NCBI GenBank assembly: GCA_976226885.1
Contig: OZ320319.1
Coordinates: forward strand, 75,640,001-75,704,000
Direction of reading: 5' to 3'
DNA: 64,000 bases
From: Iphione sp. A-MEVVRFRX5
Lineage: Eukaryota
Shown piece by piece: positions 1 through 25,920 of this stretch. The notes below the pieces were generated by a model. The model was not told the origin of the DNA and searched no databases. It worked only from the letters and a program-made list of their open reading frames with translations. Position 1 is the first letter of the stretch. Each line of letters begins with the position of its first letter. The position numbers and the translations under genes are program-made.

Positions 1-2
1 CA

Positions 3-3000
3 GAGTGGGCAGCCCCAGCCTTTTTGGTGTCAAAAGGGGGGCCTGGTAAACACACTGGTTGGCGTTTGGTTGTTGACTATAGGGGTTTAAATACGGCCAC
101 CATAGACAGGTGCCTTAATATTCCCCGTATTGATGATACCCTTGATGCTATTGGTCAAGTGAAACCACAGTGGTTCTCTGCTTTAGACCTCGCTGCCTCC
201 TTCCATCAGTTGCCTATCAGGGAGGAGGACAGGGACAAAACTGCATTTTTAACACAAGATGGGGCATATAGGTACACTCGTTTACCTATGGGCCTACAGG
301 GATCACCTGCATCCCTACAATTGGCCATGGACAAACTTCTGTCAGACATTAGGTATAAGACATGTCTTGCCTATTTAGATGACATTATTGTCTTTTCCCC
401 CACTTTTGAACAACATCTAAAAGACCTAGAGGAGGTATTCAGGCGTCTACAGTCTGCAAATCTGAAACTAAAAGCCTCTAAGTGTCATGTTGGCTGTAAG
501 CAAATTAACTACCTAGGACATGTTCTTTCCCCTGAGGGAGTTGCCCCACAAAACGACAAGATTACAGCCATGACATCCCTTAAAACTCCTACCACTGTTA
601 AGGCAGTGAGACAGTTCCTGGGTATGGTAGGTTTCTATAGGAAATTTATCAGGAATTTTGCAGACATTGCTAGGCCCCTAACCCTCCTCCTAAAAGAAAA
701 GACAGAGTGGGTCTGGGGAGAAGACCAGCAAAAAGCCTACGACACCCTAATACAGGCTATCACCAGTTATGAGGTATTGATCTACCCAGACTTCAATAAA
801 CCATTTGAGTTGAGCACTGATGCTAGTGATGTAGGCATGGGGGCAGTGCTCTCTCAAAAAGATGACAGGGATGTATTGAGACCAGTGGCCTATGCGGCTA
901 AAACTTTCATCCCTGCTGAATTAAACTACACCACTACTGAAAAAGAACTGTGTGCAGTGGTGTGGGCCTGTAATTATTTCAGGGTTTATTTAGAGGGAAG
1001 GAGATTCACCATCCATACTGATCACAATGCCCTGAAATGGATCCTGACAACAAAGTCAGTGACAGGCAGATTAGCTAGGTGGGCAGCCAAATTACAGGGT
1101 TTTACCTTTGATGTAAAACATGTAAAAGGTAAAGAAAATGTAGTCCCAGATGCTCTATCAAGGCTACAGAGTAGGGAGAAGCCAGAGGACGTTTCAGCAA
1201 TACAGAATATATTGGGGGGTCAGGGAGGAGTCTCTGACATACCAGACACTCCAGAGAAGGAGGAAACCCACCCCTCCACCCACCAAGGCTTCTCCCCTCA
1301 CTGTCCACCAAATAAGGGGCTACAAACTCCTTGGATACGACCTCAGAGCCCACACCCTGTCCAGTCTGAATACATTAATTCCTCTTCCCCAAATTCACCA
1401 CCAAAAATGGGCACCAAAGCTCAGATTCAGGATGAGTTGAGGCCTGACCAATACACTGATGTATGCAGGGCTGAGGGGAGAGATGGGGTTTGGGTTCCTA
1501 CCCCCTCCCCCACTCCACACCCCTCTCCTGGCCTCCCAGGCCTCCATGGAGCTCGTTTCTCTCACCCTGGTCACTACTCCTTGGCCCAGAGCCAAGAGAG
1601 AGGTCGGATGGCTGAAATAACCATCCCACCACCCATCAAACCACCCTCCCCACCAGCTGCCAACCCTGGTAGCCTCCCACCCAACCCACCCTGCCTTCCC
1701 ACCCAGTCAGGAGGCTCCCTGCCTACCTCCCCTACCAGAGGGGAGGGGGAGAATATAAGAGAGTTCTCTAATACACATGGTATAGGTGTTCACACTTTAC
1801 AGCAAAAACCACAAAACAAAAGGAGAAAAAGATATCTGACTCAAGCATCCCAATCTATCCCTGAATGTCTCAATGGATTAGGGTTGGATGTAGACCTTAT
1901 TAGAGGAGAACAAGAGAAAGACCCCTTTTGCTCAGAGATATTAAACTTCCTCAGACACTCTAAACTCCCTGATGATGAAGACAAGGCAAGAGCTATTGTC
2001 TTGAGAGAGATGGATTATTTCATTTCTGATGATCTCCTATATAGACTCAATACTCCGGGGGGAAAGAAATCTCAGGTAACTGCACAGTTAGTTATTCCCC
2101 ACAATCTTATCAAAACTGTCCTAAGTCTCCACCATGATACTACATATGCAGGTCACTTAGGTTCACAGAAAATGCTTTCTGTAATGCGTCCACGTTACTT
2201 TTGGCCAAAACTCGTAGAGGATGTACAACTCTACACAAAATCCTGTGATGTGTGTAATGCAAATAAAAGAATGACACACACCATCAAACCACCGCTCACT
2301 CTCAGGGAGCCAGCCCCTGCTCCCTTTGCAGTGGTCAATATGGATGCCATCGAGGACCTGCCCCCGACAGAACAGGGAAACAAACATATCATAACTATTG
2401 TGGACTTTTATTCCAGATACCTCATAGCGTTCCCTGTCCCAGATCTAAAAGCAGCGACCCTTGCTAAACACTTTTATGAACAAGTTATCTGCCGCTTCGG
2501 GGCAGTGCGTCGGATTGTTAGTGACAATGGATCGGCTTTTATCTCTGAGTTGTTCAAAGAACTTTGCGTACGATTTGGCATACAACAAACCTTTATCACT
2601 AGCCTACATCCATCCTCTTCAGGCCTAGTTGAAAGATTCAATAGATCCATTATCAACAGCCTGAAAAACTATGTCCAGGAAAATCAGACAGACTGGGACA
2701 AGTTTCTCCCCTCTGTCTGCTATGCACTGAATATGTCGGATGCATATTCAACTGGACATAGCCCACATCTCCTCGTTCATGGGTACAACCCACCAACCCC
2801 ACCAGAGTCTAACCTTGATGATCCATTCAATGACCCTAAAAATGTACAACAAATCTTTGCAGATATCCTACAGGCACAACATGCAGCTGACAAGGTAGCA
2901 AAAGAACACCTTGCCATGACTCAGGACAAAATGAAGGAAAGGTATGATAAGACAGCATATATGCCAGACCTAAAACCTGGTGATATTGTTTGGTTGTTTT

Positions 3001-4148
3001 GGCCTAGAATTGCTCTTCCCAAAACTAGACTTAAACTTTCCAAAGTTTACCATGGACCTTTCCTTTTTGTCAGATTTCAATCTCCCTCTACTTGTTTCAT
3101 TAAGAGACTCTCTGACAATAAGTTTCTGGATAAACCTGTGGCAGTGGCTAGGTTAAAGAAGGGTTTGTTAAGAGAGGACATCACTCACTGGGATCCTATT
3201 ATTGGTGATATAGAGGACCCAATTGAATTGGATGAAGGTGACTTACCAAATGACAGTTTTGAGATGAGTGAACAGGATAGATCTGTCTCCAATCCAGACC
3301 CTGTCCTAGTCACTGTACATGAATCTACAGAGAAGAGAGACCAACCAACCCCTACCACCCACCCTTCCACCCCTCCCACCCATCAACAGACCCCTACTAC
3401 TACTCCCACCACCCCCACTACTACTCCTGATGCTCCTACAACCTCTAGGACGTTTCCTGGAGTAGATATAACGCTCCCAGTGCTGCCACAAGCGTCCTAC
3501 ACCCTCCCCCAGTCTCCTAATCAGCTCCAGAGCTCCAGGACGGATTTAGAACCTGATCCTCCACTCCTACACACACTGGCAGGCACTCCAGGGGGAGGGG
3601 GAGCATTCCAGGACGAGTTCTATACACCACCACAGCTCCCACCACCTCACAGGAGGGGCAGAGACCTCTCAAGAGGGAGTAAAGACCCCCATCTACTTAT
3701 TGACTCACCCCCATCTCAATCTTCACCCCTCCCATCACACAGCTCTTCCCCCACACCACAGACACCACAGATACGTCCTCCTGGCCATGGTATACCTCCC
3801 ACCCACTCTGGAGGGGAGCAGAATCCCTCCCAGTCAGGGAGCAGTGAACTCTTCACCCCTACACCTCCCCAGCCTCCCCAGAGTGTACCAAACGAAGGTG
3901 ATAAGCTATCCTACCCTGCTGCAAGTAAAAGTTTAGGCCCAGACAAAGTTTATCATGAAGTAAAAGAAATGATAGACATGGGTAATGTGTCAGGTTTAGG
4001 AACAAGATTCAAACTTGTTTTTGCAGATGGAGATATTAGATGGGTAGCACCTGAGTGTCTAAATACCATGGCTAAACAAAAGTTTCTCACCTCTGAAATA
4101 CAGGAGGATTCTCTTAGAGAAGTTCCCCACACTAGATCTATGAGGTAA
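3..4148 (+). CDS. pol: Pol polyprotein (5'-partial): RT, RNase H, Pro-rich insert, integrase, Pro/Thr-rich linker, chromodomain-like C-terminus
   Basis: Frame open from base 3 (EWAAPAFLVSK...WRLVVDYRGLN). YLDD at 372-383; RNase H TDAS/KELCA/HTDH/PDAL; INT H-x6-H and CDVC; D (2343), D (2523), E (2631) with exact D-35-E spacing; GPF motif ~3054-3062. Confidence 0.97.
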   Translation, partial: EWAAPAFLVSKGGPGKHTGWRLVVDYRGLNTATIDRCLNIPRIDDTLDAIGQVKPQWFSALDLAASFHQLPIREEDRDKTAFLTQDGAYRYTRLPMGLQGSPASLQLAMDKLLSDIRYKTCLAYLDDIIVFSPTFEQHLKDLEEVFRRLQSANLKLKASKCHVGCKQINYLGHVLSPEGVAPQNDKITAMTSLKTPTTVKAVRQFLGMVGFYRKFIRNFADIARPLTLLLKEKTEWVWGEDQQKAYDTLIQAITSYEVLIYPDFNKPFELSTDASDVGMGAVLSQKDDRDVLRPVAYAAKTFIPAELNYTTTEKELCAVVWACNYFRVYLEGRRFTIHTDHNALKWILTTKSVTGRLARWAAKLQGFTFDVKHVKGKENVVPDALSRLQSREKPEDVSAIQNILGGQGGVSDIPDTPEKEETHPSTHQGFSPHCPPNKGLQTPWIRPQSPHPVQSEYINSSSPNSPPKMGTKAQIQDELRPDQYTDVCRAEGRDGVWVPTPSPTPHPSPGLPGLHGARFSHPGHYSLAQSQERGRMAEITIPPPIKPPSPPAANPGSLPPNPPCLPTQSGGSLPTSPTRGEGENIREFSNTHGIGVHTLQQKPQNKRRKRYLTQASQSIPECLNGLGLDVDLIRGEQEKDPFCSEILNFLRHSKLPDDEDKARAIVLREMDYFISDDLLYRLNTPGGKKSQVTAQLVIPHNLIKTVLSLHHDTTYAGHLGSQKMLSVMRPRYFWPKLVEDVQLYTKSCDVCNANKRMTHTIKPPLTLREPAPAPFAVVNMDAIEDLPPTEQGNKHIITIVDFYSRYLIAFPVPDLKAATLAKHFYEQVICRFGAVRRIVSDNGSAFISELFKELCVRFGIQQTFITSLHPSSSGLVERFNRSIINSLKNYVQENQTDWDKFLPSVCYALNMSDAYSTGHSPHLLVHGYNPPTPPESNLDDPFNDPKNVQQIFADILQAQHAADKVAKEHLAMTQDKMKERYDKTAYMPDLKPGDIVWLFWPRIALPKTRLKLSKVYHGPFLFVRFQSPSTCFIKRLSDNKFLDKPVAVARLKKGLLREDITHWDPIIGDIEDPIELDEGDLPNDSFEMSEQDRSVSNPDPVLVTVHESTEKRDQPTPTTHPSTPPTHQQTPTTTPTTPTTTPDAPTTSRTFPGVDITLPVLPQASYTLPQSPNQLQSSRTDLEPDPPLLHTLAGTPGGGGAFQDEFYTPPQLPPPHRRGRDLSRGSKDPHLLIDSPPSQSSPLPSHSSSPTPQTPQIRPPGHGIPPTHSGGEQNPSQSGSSELFTPTPPQPPQSVPNEGDKLSYPAASKSLGPDKVYHEVKEMIDMGNVSGLGTRFKLVFADGDIRWVAPECLNTMAKQKFLTSEIQEDSLREVPHTRSMR

Positions 4149-4369
4149 ATAACCTACACACATTGATTATTGGCTACATGTCCCAGGCCAGACAATATAC
4201 ATTAGTATTTTGTCTGTGTTGCTCTTGATTATGATTTGGCAAAGGTCATATAGAACACACTGTGATAACTACTGCAGTAGGACTTTGTTTTTTCTGTGAT
4301 ATGTCTGATCAGATAGAATGTACAGAACCCTTTTAGTTTAGTTTCACCTCTGTATATATGCCCAGAGAC

Positions 4370-4387
4370 TTTATTTTTTATAATAAA
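4370..4387. terminator. Back-to-back poly(A) signals: minus-strand AATAAA (4375-4370) and plus-strand AATAAA (4382-4387)
   Basis: TTTATTTTTTATAATAAA; the plus signal is followed by a GU/U-rich tract (cgtcttgttatgtatattt) and lies ~235 nt after the pol stop. Confidence 0.5.
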
Positions 4388-4857
4388 ACGTCTTGTTATG
4401 TATATTTCGGATCTCCCAACAAAAAAAAATCAGAACTGACAGAGACAGAGAAGTGCATACAGGCACAGGGTTTTCAGTTCCCCACATGATTTATCTTGCC
4501 ATTTCTGAAAATGGTTCAGTGGATTGGAGATAACAGTTACAGGAGAAAACTGTTATACGGTAAAAGACCATGGCAGACACTCCCCCTTGCCCAGGGAAGG
4601 AAGGGGATGACCGTAAAGGTTTAGCCCTAGCCCACAAGAAGAAGGGTAGGGATGATTCAGTTTCCCTCCTTAGGGAATGAATATACATGTTTGCGGAACA
4701 TGTCAATTGTATTTTAACTGATCGCTCTCGCACCGTATCAGGTAGACTTGAAAAATTTTGGCATGACCCCTATTTACAAAGAGGGGCTCTAAAGGATATG
4801 TAATGGTGGCCCGAGGGCCGGGTTTCTTTTGGGGGAGGAAAGGGAGAAGATGGCTCT

Positions 4858-5408
4858 TTATTGCGCATGAATATAGTCCATCCACATCTTGCCATACCAG
4901 CCACCCCATTCTATATCCATCTTTCGTGCCCGGTATAATTCCTTCATGAGAAGGAAGTATGCCTTGGCCCAGTACGGTAGGGCAGCACCCCTTATCCGGG
5001 CTAATGACTGTGATCCCATGTCTTTTAACATGGCATCAAAAGCCAGCCGCCCAAGGGGGCCCAATTGCTGGTAGGTATAGGTGTGGTAGGTTTTTGTCTT
5101 AAACAAGGCAGTCCTCTCCAATGCATGTATGTACTTGCATAGGAGACACCAACAGTTTGGTTGACAATCTCCATGAAAGATTTCATGTATCAACTCATCA
5201 CTGCGGGATTTAGTTAACTCCCCTGTAAAACAATACATTAGCAGGAACCAGTCATCAGAGTAAAAAGCTCCAGCCTTTTTGTATACTATGTCATCATCCC
5301 AGTGCTGGGAAACAGACATAAACTCTGCAATACTGTCTGCCATGTCTTTCCCTTCCCAACCTAGAGGTAGGAATGAGTGCATCCCAAACCTGGGATCCAA
5401 CCCTGCCT
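4858..5408 (-). CDS. Main (last) coding exon of an antisense accessory gene of unknown function with a Cys/His cluster
   Basis: Part of the 237-codon minus ORF 4858-5571; globular-looking sequence (HGDCQPNCWCLLCKYIH); acceptor ccctcctctcctctcAG at 5410-5409; strong-Kozak internal Met (GACATGG, MADSIAEF, 161 aa); AATAAA overlaps the TAA stop (4862-4857). Confidence 0.7.
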
Positions 5409-5681
5409 CTGAGAGGAGAGGAGGGAGCCCTAAAACCATACCCATATTTGTAAAGTGGGTTTCCTGACTTAATTTATGCTCAGTCCTTCCTCCTACACCT
5501 CGTTTCTGTTGCCATGGGCCCTCCTCATGGCCCTGGTATTGATGGCTTGACTTATATGGCCAGGTATCCACTCTCTGACCATCACCAGCCCTCCCACCCT
5601 CTCACCAGTGGTGGGGAGAGGCTAAAATCGTTGATATAGCCCCATAGAGCCAGAGAGCACCACCCCACACTCCATACTCAC

Positions 5682-5742
5682 TCTGGAGCAGTGGAAACGT
5701 CCTTGCAACTGCTATACACACAGCAGCAAAGGGGATATACTT
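5682..5742 (-). CDS. Predicted exon 2 of the antisense accessory gene (KYIPFAAVCIAVARTFPLLQ)
   Basis: Acceptor tctctctctctcttAG (5744-5743) and donor GTGAGT (5681); enters in phase 0 and leaves in phase 1, matching both neighbouring exons. Confidence 0.45.
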
Positions 5743-5875
5743 CTAAGAGAGAGAGAGACCACTGGAAAATATCACCAGACTGAATACTGGGTTGTCTCTC
5801 TGTGGTGAAACCTACTACACTTGACTGTGTTATACTGACTCCAACTTATCCTAAGGAACAGAAAGGATAACTCAC

Positions 5876-5917
5876 CTTAGAGAAGGAGTTTATCCAGACT
5901 ACAGTGATTATCACCAT
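5876..5917 (-). CDS. Predicted exon 1 of the antisense accessory gene (MVIITVVWINSFSK; in-frame upstream ATG at 5956 possible)
   Basis: gtcATGg Kozak context; 42 nt ending AAG|GTGAGT (donor at 5875), phase 0. Confidence 0.45.
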
Positions 5918-5936
5918 GACTGCTCTTTGGAGAACA
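5916..5936 (+). CDS. env: Predicted env leader micro-exon (MTALWRT)
   Basis: accATG, 7 codons, then perfect GTAAGT at 5937; 246-nt intron with CACTAAT branch (6149-6155) and tttcAG at 6181-6182; joins env in frame to give signal peptide MTALWRTVVPLLCFASFCRVIQG. Confidence 0.7.
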
Positions 5937-6173
5937 GTAAGTTTTAATAGACTCATTCACACCTCTTTTGAAAGGGAAGTTGTATTGAGTTACTTTTGCA
6001 TTGACTTTAGTCAAAACTTGTATCTTTTCCCTTGTTTTAAGGTTTTGTTCCTCCAATACATTTAAAAGGAGATAACTTTGTTGGCAGAGAAAAGGCCTCA
6101 CTGTTATCCATTTCGGCATTGAGGTTACTTATCTTTAGGGAGGAACATCACTAATTATGGGAATATTTTATGT

Positions 6174-9131
6174 ATGTTTCAGGTAGTGCCACTACTGTGC
6201 TTTGCCTCCTTCTGTAGGGTCATACAGGGGAATGGCCCAGTGGTGAGGCAGAATGTAGGAGTGGTATTCCACCCTACAAAGCATGTCCTCTTAGGGGGCC
6301 AGGAGTCCTATGATCTGGTCTTCAAGATCCACATCCCTAGGGGTCTTGATCATTCTGTTATCAATCCAGACACAGATTTATGTCTTAGGGTCTGGAAACA
6401 TAGATATGGGGGAATGGCTTCAGACCAGCCATCAGATTCAGGCCAAAATATTTCGAAACCAGACCAGACTCCTGACAATACCACCCACTGGCTACCTCCC
6501 TTCCAAAGTATTGACCCTGAAGTACTGGCAATAGCTGCTGAACGTGCGAAACTACCCCATCCGCCACCAACATATGAGGGTGACTTCTGCAACTCGATGA
6601 CACCACTCTTCTCTTCATTACGGAGCGTGCTCCACACTGCTCGACAACACTATAGAGAAGAGCGCAGAAGGCTTATGATGTTGCTGAGGACACCATCCCC
6701 TAACCCAGGAACGGTAACTCCAAGGGCACCTTTCGGTTTCATGGGCCAGTTTCACAGGGCTCTTTATGGCACTGCGACACTTGATGATATTAAGGTCGTA
6801 AATGAGAATATAAAAAGAGTAAAAGGTTATTCAGTCGCGGTTGCAAATTTCACTACAAGACTTAGAGATTATACTCTTCATTTTGTAAATATAACTAGAC
6901 ACAAATTCAATGAACTTGGTAGGGACATGGTACAACATGCAGTTTATATAAACAGGCTTGCACAAGCAGAGCAGGAACTTTCTGAGAAATTAACAAAAAC
7001 CTCCACTCAATTAGAGTCTAATAGGTGGTGGACTCTATATGCACTTTCTTATGTAGGTGCCAAGACTCTGGCTATTCAACAAATTCATAACTATATTAAC
7101 GCTTTGTCCCGTTTTAGGCATGGCCTAGAACAGGGAATGAAGGGATCCCTCACAACTGACTTAATCTCTAGAAAAGACCTAAGGAGTGGTTTAAACCAAT
7201 TGAGAGAAAGACTTGCGAAAGTTGACAGAACAGTGGTCCTTAAAGATGCAGCACTTTACTATAATAACTTTCTGGTCCAGGTAAGGTACAATAGTCGGTA
7301 TATCTATATACATATTTTGGTTCCAGTTGCTAAAACACCCTCTTTGTATGACATGTACCAGGTAAGCACTTTTCCAGTCCCTATTAATATTAAGGATCAT
7401 AAGGGATATACCCAAATTACTAACATCCCTGACATCCTTTTGGTAAATGATCAAACAGGCAACTATATTACCTTATCACACAAGGATCTCATCGGTTGTG
7501 AAATGGATCACTTCATCCTTTGCCCTTTCCCACTCCCTGTTAGGGAACCTACCATCCCTACTTGTATTATGGACATTTTTCTGGATAAAACTATTTCATC
7601 CGCACAATGCAATCACAAGCTCTATCCTTTTCAAGAATCTCCAGATGATATTATCCCTATCTCAGACTCAACATTCATTATTTCTTCCTTCCACCATAAC
7701 TACACCCTCACTTGCAATGACTCAGTCACTACCCATACAGCAAATGGTTTAGCTGTTGCGAAGGTGGGTTGCGATTGCGTCCTACGGATAGGAGGACAGA
7801 TGGTCACAGGAGGCCGTTTCACCTGCGACCGACGAATGCAGATTGAACTCCAGCATGCACTTAACCTTCCAGTCTTACAAGCTTTTAATATTCCTCTGCC
7901 AAATGCCACTCCATCTTTTACCTCAAACATCTCCTACAGTCTGAAACTTCCAAACATTTCTGCCTTCCTTCATGAAGAAAAACAAAAATATGGAGATTCC
8001 TTTACAGATGACCTGGACAAAATTTCAACACAAATGCAAAAGATTAAGGTCCCAAAGCCACCTGTCCTCATGCCATGGCAAGCCGACTCCTTTTCTGACT
8101 GGCTAAAATCCCCATTTGCTTTCTCTTTCATCAGTGGTTGGGGAGCATTTCAGCTTCTCATCTCTCTTGTTTCATTAGGTTTAGCTATCTGGACATTCAT
8201 CAAAATGAGACAGTTAAGGGCAGCTTTACTTTTAGCCACCGCTAGTAGAACTATGTACACCCTGGCTGACCCCATCCCTCAGGTAAACTTCAAAGACCTC
8301 TATCCAATTGCACCTACTATGCCCACTGACATAGACACTGTTGAAGAAAATGACCTTACCCGAGTGCTGGCAAACATGACCTATCTAGACCAGATCGTCT
8401 CGATAATTTTTGTTATTTTTCTAATCTGGATGTTGGCCAAATTATTTAAATCTTGTGCAAAACTGTGTTGTGGAGGCACAGAACAATGCCTCAGCCGTCT
8501 ATCTCCATTTGGTAAACCAAACCACCTTCCTTGGAATCGTTCCACTTTCGCGTCAAGTGGCATTGAGTTTTGGCTCAAATTTGGTTCAGCCCACAAATAC
8601 GAGACCATATATCTGACCACCATTTTCGAACGCCTTGAGGCTACACGTGTGCACTGTATGCCTAAGGTTAAGGTATGTGAAATTATTTGTGGATGCACCA
8701 CTTGTGATGTTATTTTAAACTATGACGGGTGTCTCCAGTTGTCACACCCACATAAGAAGGAGACCATAAATTTGCCTGCAACAGTGCGTATTCCAGCCTG
8801 CAGAGGCAAGGCAATCAAACGCCTTGGCTTAGACACTGTTGAGGCTTGCCTTATTTTACGTCAGGGTGATCTCTGTGCACAGGCTACGGCAGAGACAACT
8901 TGTGCGGCCACTGCCTTATCCCGCACAGCTGCCCGTGCCAGCATGAGAGACCCAACCCACAGGACATCCTCAACCCTACCTCGATCTGCGAGTGCAGAAT
9001 CAATTAACCCTTTCATTCAACCAGAAGAATTGAGCCGAGGTAGAAACCTCAACATGGAGGCCACCGCTCCATTAGTAAAGTTTAAGGACCCGCCTGGTTA
9101 TTCAGGCACATATAACAGCTCATTCGCTTAA
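6174..9131 (+). CDS. env: Envelope glycoprotein, class I fusion F-type (baculovirus F/errantivirus-like), with a C-terminal second-TM extension
   Basis: Signal peptide; R184 followed by fusion-peptide-like APFGFMGQFHRALYGTATLDDI; heptad region; Cys-rich segment; many N-x-S/T sequons; aromatic MPER and TM at ~aa657-677; second TM ~aa741-758; PPGY at aa973-976. Confidence 0.93.
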   Translation: MFQVVPLLCFASFCRVIQGNGPVVRQNVGVVFHPTKHVLLGGQESYDLVFKIHIPRGLDHSVINPDTDLCLRVWKHRYGGMASDQPSDSGQNISKPDQTPDNTTHWLPPFQSIDPEVLAIAAERAKLPHPPPTYEGDFCNSMTPLFSSLRSVLHTARQHYREERRRLMMLLRTPSPNPGTVTPRAPFGFMGQFHRALYGTATLDDIKVVNENIKRVKGYSVAVANFTTRLRDYTLHFVNITRHKFNELGRDMVQHAVYINRLAQAEQELSEKLTKTSTQLESNRWWTLYALSYVGAKTLAIQQIHNYINALSRFRHGLEQGMKGSLTTDLISRKDLRSGLNQLRERLAKVDRTVVLKDAALYYNNFLVQVRYNSRYIYIHILVPVAKTPSLYDMYQVSTFPVPINIKDHKGYTQITNIPDILLVNDQTGNYITLSHKDLIGCEMDHFILCPFPLPVREPTIPTCIMDIFLDKTISSAQCNHKLYPFQESPDDIIPISDSTFIISSFHHNYTLTCNDSVTTHTANGLAVAKVGCDCVLRIGGQMVTGGRFTCDRRMQIELQHALNLPVLQAFNIPLPNATPSFTSNISYSLKLPNISAFLHEEKQKYGDSFTDDLDKISTQMQKIKVPKPPVLMPWQADSFSDWLKSPFAFSFISGWGAFQLLISLVSLGLAIWTFIKMRQLRAALLLATASRTMYTLADPIPQVNFKDLYPIAPTMPTDIDTVEENDLTRVLANMTYLDQIVSIIFVIFLIWMLAKLFKSCAKLCCGGTEQCLSRLSPFGKPNHLPWNRSTFASSGIEFWLKFGSAHKYETIYLTTIFERLEATRVHCMPKVKVCEIICGCTTCDVILNYDGCLQLSHPHKKETINLPATVRIPACRGKAIKRLGLDTVEACLILRQGDLCAQATAETTCAATALSRTAARASMRDPTHRTSSTLPRSASAESINPFIQPEELSRGRNLNMEATAPLVKFKDPPGYSGTYNSSFA

Positions 9132-9266
9132 ACATGCCTCTGCCTACCGAAACCACCATTCTATGTTCTTTGTATTGAAGATGTTTTGACCGGTCCATGC
9201 CCCCGGACCCAACGAGATTGTACTGAAGGAAACAACAACAACAAAAAAAAACCAGTGTCACATACA

Positions 9267-9272
9267 AATAAA
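9267..9272 (+). terminator. AATAAA 136 nt downstream of the env stop
   Basis: catacaAATAAAaattatgt. Confidence 0.4.
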
Positions 9273-9846
9273 AATTATGTAATCTTCGACTGTGTCCAGG
9301 TGGTGAGAATACGCCTGTTCTCCCTACCTAGGAACAGTCTACTTGAGTGTTAACGTTCATTTATGTAGCTTTTGATAATTGCTTATGATGAAATGTACTT
9401 GTATTTACTCATAGAAGGTTTAATCTTGTTTAGAGTTTGAAGTTGATTGTGCCTCATATTATCATTATATAATTTTTTTAAACTTATTCATTTGAGATGG
9501 ATGGAACAACTAGCTAGAGTAGGATTTTATTCATTGTGTGACATGTTTTTATTGTATTATGTATTCTGAGCATTTACCTATTCTCTTACACCGTATTAGG
9601 TTTGTGGTTATACATATATAATCTATATGGTATATAACTTATTTATGATATGTAATGCATGCAATACATTCTAACCATGATATATGTAACTTGTTTTGAG
9701 TCACTAGATATTCAAGCAATTACAACCATATCTACTATCTTATACATACTCTCATTATTTAATTGAGTTACCTCTCGCTGACTTCGTATTTATTCAACAC
9801 CTTCTATGAAACACCTACCTCAGTTCTGATGGAACAGAACTTTTCC

Positions 9847-9860
9847 AGAGAGGAGGTGAG
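9847..9860 (+). other. Polypurine tract (PPT)
   Basis: AGAGAGGAGGTGAG immediately 5' of TGTTAAC. Confidence 0.75.
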
Positions 9861-10660
9861 TGTTAACATATTAATGTACTCAATATTGTGAATCCTACAC
9901 TGTCTCAATTGTGGGATATGTTTTTAACCTTATCTACCATTAACTCTGTATTATCTTAATGTTTCACTCAGGTTTTAACCCTTTGCATGGCTTGCAGGCT
10001 CTATAGCCACAAGACTTCGATTTGGAGTGTATTTCTGGGTAGTATAGAGTAGGTAGGTTAGGGTTCAGGCGAGGAGGGAGCATCTGAGTAAATATAGCCC
10101 TTGCCAGAGGGGAGGGGGCTCTGCCCCATCCAGCTCAGGCAGGCAGAGGGCTAGCGCTGGGAGTTGCTCCCTGGGCACTGGCCAGTACAGTACTACCTTC
10201 AAAATCGACCTGGATACTCCCTCATCTCCTGTATTAATTGTGGTGAATCAGAGTTGTTCCTATTCCATCTCACATCTATGTAACTGTGTGCATTGTTGAG
10301 ATGGAATATACACCTTACAGCGGATCCCTGTTGTTGTCTTATTGGATTTAATACACCAGGAACACACACACACACACTACCATACATACAGACATTGCTC
10401 CCCACATATAACCCTGCAAAGGAGTTATACCGGACGTTCTATTATCCACAAAGGAACAAGTGTGTATCTACCAAACCCCACACAAGGGTTTGGACTCCTG
10501 GAGACATTTCCACCAGACACTCTTTCACAACTGTGAGCTGTTTTGTGATGCTCATGTAGCAGTGTGTCGAGCAAGAGGAAAGCACGGTCTGACAACAAGT
10601 TCACACAAGCGTCCAACTGACAGGAGCAAATCGTGACCTTTTAGGACTTTCCCCGTAACA
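9861..10660 (+). repeat. 3' LTR (~800 bp; end could be 10668)
   Basis: Begins TGTTA right after the PPT and ends GTAACA (TGTTA/TAACA inverted termini); TATA-like TAAATATA at 10089-10096; a second GTAACA ends at 10668; the 5' LTR is not available for confirmation. Confidence 0.7.
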
Positions 10661-25390: not shown

Positions 25391-25920
25391 CTTTGCGTTG
25401 CCTACAGACAGTTAAATCATAATTCGTGAGCTACTTACTTGTAGATGTGGATATACTTGTAGATGGGGACTATATCGAGCTACTTACTTGTAGATGTGGA
25501 TACTTCTAGATGGGGACTATATCGAGACTCCCCTCTATCGTGGCTGCGATTTCTCAGAACGCATGGATAGCCACATTTCTCCGGGTATACGTGACCTTTG
25601 GTATACTTCCCAGGGCACAGCGAGATTAAATCGAAAACTTATGTTTTGGATAACTTTGCGTTGCCTACAGACAGTTAAATCATAATTCGTGAGCTACTTA
25701 CTTGTAGATGTGGATATACTTGTAGATGGGGACTATATCGAGCTACTTACTTGTAGATGTGGATACTTCTAGATGGGGACTATATCGAGACTCCCCTCTA
25801 TCGTGGCTGCGATTTCTCAGAACGCATGGATAGCCACATTTCTCCGGGTATACGTGACCTTTGGTATACTTCCCAGGGCACAGCGAGATTAAATCGAAAA
25901 CTTATGTTTTGGATAACTTT
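25391..25920 (+). repeat. Tandem duplication, 2 x 263 bp, each copy with an internal 49/47-bp duplication
   Basis: Units start at 25391 and 25654 (ctttgcgttgcctacag...); identical ORF-track peptides at 25494 and 25757. Confidence 0.95.

Follow-up and report, generated by a model that had tools for sequence, protein, structure and literature searches.

An antisense gene under purifying selection between pol and env of an errantivirus-type element from Iphione sp.

Results

The element and its genes

The window considered in this study is a stretch of 64,000 nucleotides from Iphione sp. A-MEVVRFRX5 (contig OZ320319.1, positions 75,640,001 to 75,704,000). It opens within a Ty3/gypsy element of 13.3 kb, in which an open reading frame on the minus strand sits in the interval of about 2 kb between pol and env. 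Gag, the protease, and the 5' LTR lie directly upstream of the window (L031:7182-9999), with gag specifying a Ty3 capsid and zinc knuckles. The 3' part of pol (3..4148, plus strand) encodes reverse transcriptase, RNase H, and integrase and closes with a long tail rich in Pro, Ser, and Thr, which is weakly constrained (omega 0.65). Two long Pro/Ser/Thr-rich inserts are found in pol, one at the RNase H/integrase junction (approximately 1170-1880) and the other after the integrase (approximately 3280-4000). Env (6174..9131, plus strand) specifies 985 amino acids from an ATG at 6174 and is assigned to the family of F-type (class I) fusion proteins. The N-terminus of its product is hydrophobic, as are two further stretches, near residues 658 and 741. 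The element ends with a 3' LTR (9861..10529, plus strand, TG...CA), with a purine tract before it and a 4-bp target duplication, ACTG, after it. The two LTRs are 99.85% identical, and this, together with the flanking duplication, indicates that the copy is very young.

The features expected of an errantivirus are present. The order of genes is gag and then pol, the latter arranged PR-RT-RH-IN, and the element has TG...CA LTRs, a purine tract, a target duplication, and a primer site (TGGTGGAGAA), which presumably resembles tRNA-Ala. An F-type env after pol was recognized by way of its relatives: the env of the window, searched alone against Pfam, gave no match to Baculo_F; it aligns at 22-26% with seven sister envs, all seven of which match that family, and a joint profile of the eight sequences matches the fusion protein 9w4c of the PDB (E=2e-7). 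Judged from these features, this Ty3/gypsy element, with its env, is of the errantivirus type.

CpG is scarce within the element (observed/expected 0.26, versus 0.66 in the flanking DNA). This depletion is consistent with a history of host methylation, or with pressure from it, although the element's own composition may account for the low level. The animal's assembly amounts to 1.18 Gb. Haemocyanin, erythrocruorin linker, and connexin found no match in it, and neither did the controls for these markers; the lack of connexin agrees weakly with an invertebrate host. Farther along the window, at 25391-25916, a 263-nt unit is duplicated exactly in tandem.

Between the convergent pol and antisense genes is an AT-rich stretch (4366..4400) with back-to-back poly(A)-like signals, TTTATT and then AATAAA. 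Both hexamers are found in 24 of 25 aligned copies, despite indels nearby (the 25th has a deletion). Possibly, the stretch serves as a two-way terminator, for both the gag-pol mRNA and the antisense mRNA.

The antisense frame and its predicted exons

On the minus strand of the interval between pol and env, the frame that is open from stop to stop (4858-5601) comprises 247 codons, not 237 as the original prediction had it. Over 4858-5408, stops number 12, 8, and 5 in the three plus frames and 10 in each of the remaining minus frames. Within the open frame lies a core of 161 amino acids (MADSIAEF...HAQ; 4858..5343, minus strand; 19 kDa, pI 6.6), beginning at an ATG at 5343. The core bears the cluster H-x2-C-x3-C-x-C-x2-C-x3-H (H57-C60-C64-C66-C69-H73 in core numbering; 5125..5175, minus strand), as originally described and predicted to be a zinc site. 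The TAA stop codon overlaps an AATAAA (4857..4862, minus strand), a candidate poly(A) signal that is present in all 25 aligned copies, retained in an old decayed copy (L032), and altered in another (L034).

Two introns were originally drawn upstream of the core, and each element of that drawing is in place. Predicted exon 1 (5876..5956, minus strand) has in-frame ATGs at 5956 and 5917. It is followed by predicted intron 1 (5743..5875; 133 nt, GTGAGT...(TC)n TTAG), predicted exon 2 (5682..5742; 61 nt), predicted intron 2 (5409..5681; 273 nt, GTGAGT...CTCAG), and predicted exon 3 (4858..5408; 551 nt), all on the minus strand. The donors at 5875 and 5681 are both GTGAGT, and the acceptor AGs end at 5743 and 5409. 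No stop interrupts the implied frame of the three exons, which sum to 42 (or 81) + 61 + 551 nt, that is, 218 (or 231) codons with the stop, hence the 217 or 230 amino acids expected. All four ATGs within the predicted exons share the frame of the core. Intron 2 contains seven more, five of which are out of frame with it.

Retention and selection

The last exon, taken as 182 codons, has 36 matches in the genome, of which 24 are unbroken and 96-100% identical; the remainder are interrupted, frameshifted, or old. Among env-bearing loci at 89% identity or greater, 27 of 29 keep the antisense region, and the two that lack it have large deletions that also take all or part of pol. In three young copies (L026/L028, L027/L029, and L011), insertions of approximately 0.7, 9, and 29 kb disrupt the antisense ORF or the sequence immediately ahead of it, two of them with a break near 5130.

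Selection acts on the frame in particular. Over the core of the 24 young copies, omega is 0.38 (p=0.003), compared with 1.46 and 1.11 for the other minus frames. (One plus frame over the core has an omega of 0.53; it is full of stops and probably shares third positions.) Variants were then divided into those shared by two or more copies and singletons, which were scored apart. Shared variants in the core number 11 synonymous to 4 nonsynonymous (omega 0.13, p=1.5e-4) and singletons 7 to 16 (omega 0.79), a pattern expected if selection operates during replication and drift after insertion. The corresponding values of omega are 0.05 and 0.41 for env and 0.48 and 0.73 for the pol tail. By this measure, selection on the core appears to be nearly as strong as that on env.

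A second comparison comes from the old, decayed copies L032 and L034, whose DNA matches that of the window at about 74% identity. Differences common to the two number 21 synonymous to 7 nonsynonymous (omega 0.11, p=4e-8), or 20 to 5 when CpG-type changes are removed, and the other two minus frames give omegas of 1.78 and 1.08. Two shorter old fragments give 0.56 and 0.55, not significant. These p-values are approximate, as the synonymous and nonsynonymous counts ignore the tree of copies. (A separate ORF of 185 codons at L032:2593-3147, minus strand, lies near the old element copy; it may be a fragment of a mitochondrial sirtuin.)

The six Cys/His residues are invariant in all 23 of the other young copies. 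All six codons are kept in L032, and C60-C64 are lost to a deletion in L034. No indel has entered exon 3 in the 24 intact copies, compared with 22 indel events in the 709 nt of its 3' flank; intron 2 is likewise free of indels. The conservation of the frame and of its Cys/His residues, along with a dN/dS below 1, had been proposed at the outset as a check on the claim that a gypsy element with env bears an accessory gene on its antisense strand, and the outcome (24 of 36 matches unbroken, the cluster invariant, dN/dS of 0.13 and 0.11) bears out that claim. The antisense ORF is very probably a real protein-coding gene.

Upstream of the core, matters differ. Omega is 1.12 for exon 1, 1.04 for exon 2, and 0.82 for the opening 21 codons of exon 3, and the shared variants of these parts number 3 synonymous to 10 nonsynonymous versus 11 to 4 for the core (Fisher p=0.02, with small counts). 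Selection thus marks the 161-amino-acid core from the ATG at 5343 and not the hydrophobic N-terminus that the original prediction gave to forms of 217 and 230 amino acids. That N-terminus does have the 19-residue hydropathy peaks to commend it (1.86 in exon 1 and 1.43 in exon 2), and one might imagine that the longer forms are membrane-anchored helpers of particle release or of spread from cell to cell, similar to the sORF2 proteins of MDG1. The ATG at 5917 has a good start context, only one of the 24 copies has a stop in exons 1 and 2, and signal and anchor segments often evolve quickly. Against this stand the excess of nonsynonymous variants just described, the intact env that the element already possesses, and the nature of the sORF2 proteins, which, in the available text of their description, are of 63-107 amino acids, encoded on the sense strand, and endowed with a clear membrane span (PMC11952523). 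A membrane helper is quite improbable. The two upstream exons may instead be a leader or an N-terminal extension free to vary.

Splicing

Evidence for the predicted introns comes chiefly from their arrangement. Scored with approximate matrices, the donor at 5875 is the best of the 749 GT sites on the minus strand of positions 1-10533 of the window, the strongest that the element's minus strand has to offer, and the acceptor at 5408 is second of the 761 AG sites. The donor at 5681 (6.6 bits) and the acceptor at 5742 (9.3) fall outside the top 12. A layout of ATG, donor, acceptor, donor, and acceptor in a single frame arose in none of 1000 dinucleotide shuffles (in 20 of 1000 when the demand for a common frame was dropped). 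The in-frame two-intron layout was found in one of 301 real windows, the one being the antisense locus itself, and in none of the 300 others. These rates are optimistic, because the thresholds were taken from the observed sites, post hoc. As a sequence pattern, the two-intron layout put forward earlier is unlikely to have come about by chance.

Conservation adds little either way. Wherever a copy retains the donors and acceptor AGs (24 or 25 of 25), these have not changed, an invariance of 16 bases that is not significant (p~0.2) at the variant densities of the introns (0.075-0.11 per site). In one old decayed fragment (L077), donor 5875 is without its GT. The modest donor at 5681 is outscored by another at 5605, whose use would, by arithmetic, shift the frame. 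No exon-only (intronless) copies are to be found among the 33 genome DNA matches to 5250-6050, and L032 has a deletion (6046 to 5387) whose ends do not coincide with the splice sites. A search of Rfam over 4100-6300 gave no match.

Perhaps, then, the gene is real but unspliced or spliced differently, giving a protein of 161-195 amino acids from a promoter inside what has been called intron 2, with the pyrimidine tracts being no more than the complement of purine/GA-repeat signals on the plus strand. This would account for the absence of selection upstream of the core, in exons 1 and 2 and over the opening 21 codons of exon 3. The ATG at 5343 has G at both -3 and +4 and is retained in the old copy L032, an in-frame ATG at 5445 is present in 25 of 25 copies, and GTGAGT occurs on the minus strand at no more than chance frequency (4 per 10 kb, not enriched). 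What makes this alternative unlikely, if worth keeping in mind, is that the top donor of the strand and its second acceptor should be found immediately ahead of the ORF, arranged in frame in a way that none of 1000 shuffles reproduced. It is an alternative of structure alone and is compatible with either of the functions considered below. On balance, the gene is probably spliced as drawn.

The protein

The core contains 17% aromatic residues and is nearly neutral, with 19 acidic and 18 basic residues (whence the pI of 6.6). It has no transmembrane stretch (its maximum hydropathy is 0.69) and no evident patch rich in Arg or Lys. Its relatives, if it has any, are elusive. No homolog was found in a word-indexed protein database or in a representative set of 1.84 billion sequences, and there was no match in PHROGs, in PDB sequences, or in viral contigs. 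The frame of 247 amino acids matches no Pfam family at E<=1, TRP28 (PF04195) and bZIP included, and the Cys/His cluster finds no zinc-finger family through Pfam, PHROG, or PDB matches. Matches in the Atlas score at most 0.87. Two metagenome matches were dismissed as chance, lying as they do inside long bacterial ORFs for membrane enzymes that resemble cardiolipin synthase. The word-indexed database also yielded nothing for env or for the sister protein of family A (described below); these negative results are therefore owed in part to how thinly animal transposons are covered. A structure predicted from the single sequence is all-helical and unreliable (pLDDT 41), too poor to reveal a metal site. 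The protein thus remains as unrecognizable as it was said to be at first sight. The odds that the core binds zinc are put at about even.

A protein with no homologs and a low Atlas recognition score (1317) might come from a host gene that the element has captured and carries along as a passenger; alternatively, the frame might be open by chance and give no product. These notions are largely refuted by the omegas of 0.11-0.13, that is, by frame-specific purifying selection in two independent comparisons. Moreover, the inspected members of the 36 genome matches are parts or fragments of the element, with no free-standing host gene among them. Both must be considered very improbable.

The principal rival concerns what the protein does. 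It may regulate the element itself, perhaps as a nuclear repressor or activator like HBZ or gene23 or as an RNA exporter like Rev, and the antisense RNA may interfere with transcription of pol and env. The antisense layout resembles that of HBZ in HTLV and of gene23 in the plant element Grande, Cys/His clusters often bind nucleic acid, and selection on the lineage that encodes the protein fits such a role. The composition does not fit it well, considering the lack of an evident Arg/Lys-rich patch, the pI of 6.6 with acidic and basic residues in balance, and the failure of the 247-amino-acid frame to match bZIP, TRP28, or any other DNA-binding family of Pfam. Self-regulation is rather unlikely. 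A core that is near-neutral and rich in aromatic residues, with no basic patch, membrane span, or recognized enzyme domain, points by elimination to the binding of protein rather than the binding of nucleic acid or fusion.

Sister elements

Other env families in the genome, among the matches listed, have integrases 45-47% identical and envs 25-32% identical to those of the element in the window. Their gaps between pol and env are larger, approximately 5-9 kb, and contain one to four ORFs on the sense strand, belonging to no known family. Two kinds of protein recur. Family A, of about 170 amino acids, occurs in sister gypsy families as one to three paralogs in tandem within the pol-env interval (L045:1744-2310, L056:2861-3547, L057:3801-7089, L059:919-4791, L064, L067, and L072:3102-3761). 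It has at least 27 variants below 85% identity, counting the best 150 of 5105 candidates. Family B is a long ORF, rich in Pro and Ser, that immediately precedes env and closes with a domain of about 190 amino acids with invariant CxxC...C and HH (L042:5383-6405, L045:5527-6981, L058:2-1786, L072:5768-7285, and L073:4048-6021, among the best 150 of 4762 candidates). The two families are homologous over the C-terminal half of B (hhalign 96%). The structure of family A is modeled with confidence (pLDDT 86), and Foldseek, run with it against PDB and viral libraries, gave nothing at E<=0.001. The best VIA score was that of NusB, which was rejected as a relative of the fold, a Z of 5.3 (rmsd 3.8 A over 85 residues) being at the level of background.

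Does the antisense protein belong with these families? By eye, they have in common LPxW with [RK]EL eight residues on, CxxCxxxH, and three C-terminal helices. Within a block of 36 columns chosen by eye, the sequences align in the expected register, and 4 of 500 shuffles do as well, a figure to be read as post hoc. More formal comparisons are less encouraging. HMMs of A and B gave no match to the antisense protein at E<10, hhalign assigned probabilities of 0.5% and 0.1% (not significant), and in shuffle tests 7, 15, and 2 of 40 shuffles scored as well as the real sequences. A shared origin of the antisense protein and the A/B family is rather unlikely. Nor did a closer sister family with the antisense ORF appear among the best 150 integrase candidates. 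Of 39 stretches on the scale of 10 kb, chosen from these searches, none of those listed matched the antisense protein, save for one deleted copy of the element's own family, in which the ORF is missing.

Two other features of the sister elements may be mentioned. One env subfamily bearing family B clusters within about 0.5 Mb of contig ends (for example, C15:65576, C19:79143829, C1:104360, and C4:118388425), and a telomere-like hexamer array adjoins one such family-B element (L058:5833-6442); the subfamily is possibly a telomere-targeting env retroelement. In addition, a set of high-copy elements (L037, L040-L042, L053-L055, and L073) has family B and an intact env with no match to pol in their 10-kb stretches. 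They may be non-autonomous carriers of env.

Discussion

A model for the antisense gene

That selection should act strongly on this gene, in an element of many copies, implies that the gene helps the lineage that carries it, either during replication or upon entry into a new cell. The explanation we favor, to which we assign a probability of roughly 45%, is that a selected antisense gene yields a soluble, helical, zinc-binding adaptor likely to blunt the silencing or restriction imposed by the host. According to this model, the antisense mRNA would start upstream of 5956, from an internal promoter near the start of env or from the 3' LTR. Two splicing events would remove the five out-of-frame upstream ATGs, and the mRNA would end at the AATAAA on the stop codon or at the one at 4375. 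The core would then be made as an adaptor stabilized by zinc, which would bind a host factor and so blunt the element's silencing or restriction. With a transcription unit of its own, the gene could supply the protein even while the LTR promoter is silenced. That the protein is an antagonist of host defense is drawn from analogy and is offered tentatively, at somewhat less than even odds.

Env-carrying gypsy elements have so far been viewed as having three genes, the relatives of "simple" retroviruses. From its sequence, the element in the window is an active errantivirus of four genes, whose selected antisense gene is of unknown family, and it stands within a wider, undescribed set of elements that bear accessory genes. 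With a fourth gene under selection beside gag, pol, and env, it merits the label of "complex" invertebrate retroelement first suggested for it. Taken with the one to four genes that sister elements have in the same slot, the selected fourth gene indicates that complex genomes with accessory genes evolved here too. A bolder version of this idea is a radiation of "complex" errantiviruses that, like lentiviruses, use the pol-env interval as a cassette, with up to four sense-strand copies of a new helical protein family in sister lineages and, in the window, an inverted, spliced, zinc-binding distant member. The proteins would be the first anti-defense factors of invertebrate retrovirus-like elements, missed by surveys confined to short gaps. 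We think this version unlikely. In any event, the antisense protein and those of families A and B are concrete candidates for how such elements handle silencing by the host, a question posed as well by the antisense ORFs of plant and fungal elements.

Comparison with known systems

A functional parallel may be drawn with lentiviruses, whose Vif, Vpr, and Vpx are small, helical, Cys/His proteins stabilized by zinc, encoded between pol and env, expressed from spliced mRNAs, and acting as adaptors against restriction factors. Those genes are on the sense strand, and the antisense protein has no Pfam or PDB sequence match; the analogy is one of proposed function alone.

HTLV-1 HBZ, HTLV-2 APH-2, and HIV-1 ASP offer a different likeness: each is an antisense protein gene in an enveloped retroelement, and the mRNA of HBZ is spliced. 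They differ in belonging to Retroviridae rather than Metaviridae, and the ORF in the window overlaps no sense gene. Neither does it have the bZIP-like domain of HBZ and APH-2, as judged by the absence of a Pfam match and of a basic region. Retroviral antisense genes are driven from the 3' LTR, according to the accessible part of one account (PMC10186651).

Among elements of plants and fungi, the aORF-3R genes (Grande gene23, the TRP28 ORFs of Retand, RIRE2, and brtn of Botrytis Boty) are antisense, lie downstream of pol, and are kept in most copies, as far as the available portions of two reports describe them (PMC7264820, PMC11963269). The gene in the window has these properties and is conserved like the core genes of its element. 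The same portions state that the product of maize gene23 is nuclear and that the gene has its own internal promoter, and they record the antisense ORF of Boty in Botrytis. Those genes lie directly between pol and the 3' LTR, whereas in the animal element a true env intervenes, the antisense gene standing between it and pol. The TRP28 domain of Retand (PF04195) is also lacking, no Pfam family having matched at E<=1.

Extra genes, some of them under selection, are known from gypsy-type elements of invertebrates, namely the ORF3s of bdelloids (PMC5408684) and sORF1 and sORF2 of Drosophila MDG1 (PMC11952523). In the available parts of these papers, their products resemble Env, are enzymes (GDSL, DEDDy), or are short proteins of membranes. 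No gene is described there as antisense in the pol-env interval, and every sORF2-like gene lies on the sense strand. A survey of annelids mentions extra ORFs in its introduction only, in the portion available (PMC8220671). A search of open-access articles turned up no description of an animal gypsy element with an antisense gene in the pol-env interval.

The nearest relatives by architecture are the "ancient errantiviruses" of Chary and Hayashi (PMC13524379). The main text of that work contains no mention of "antisense", "accessory", or "splic", and the env motif gave no match in seven of its supplements, which may contain no sequences. For non-insect genomes, as described there, the survey took POL–ENV gaps of at most 1000 nt and regions of at most 10,000 nt. 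The limit on the gap excludes the element in the window along with its sisters, and a survey of such design would skip elements of this kind. What the available text does describe is a close likeness: Ty3/gypsy elements with gag, pol, and an F-type env, bounded by LTRs and present in many near-identical copies. To this plan, the 13.3-kb element of the window adds a fourth gene, antisense, in the 2 kb between pol and env.
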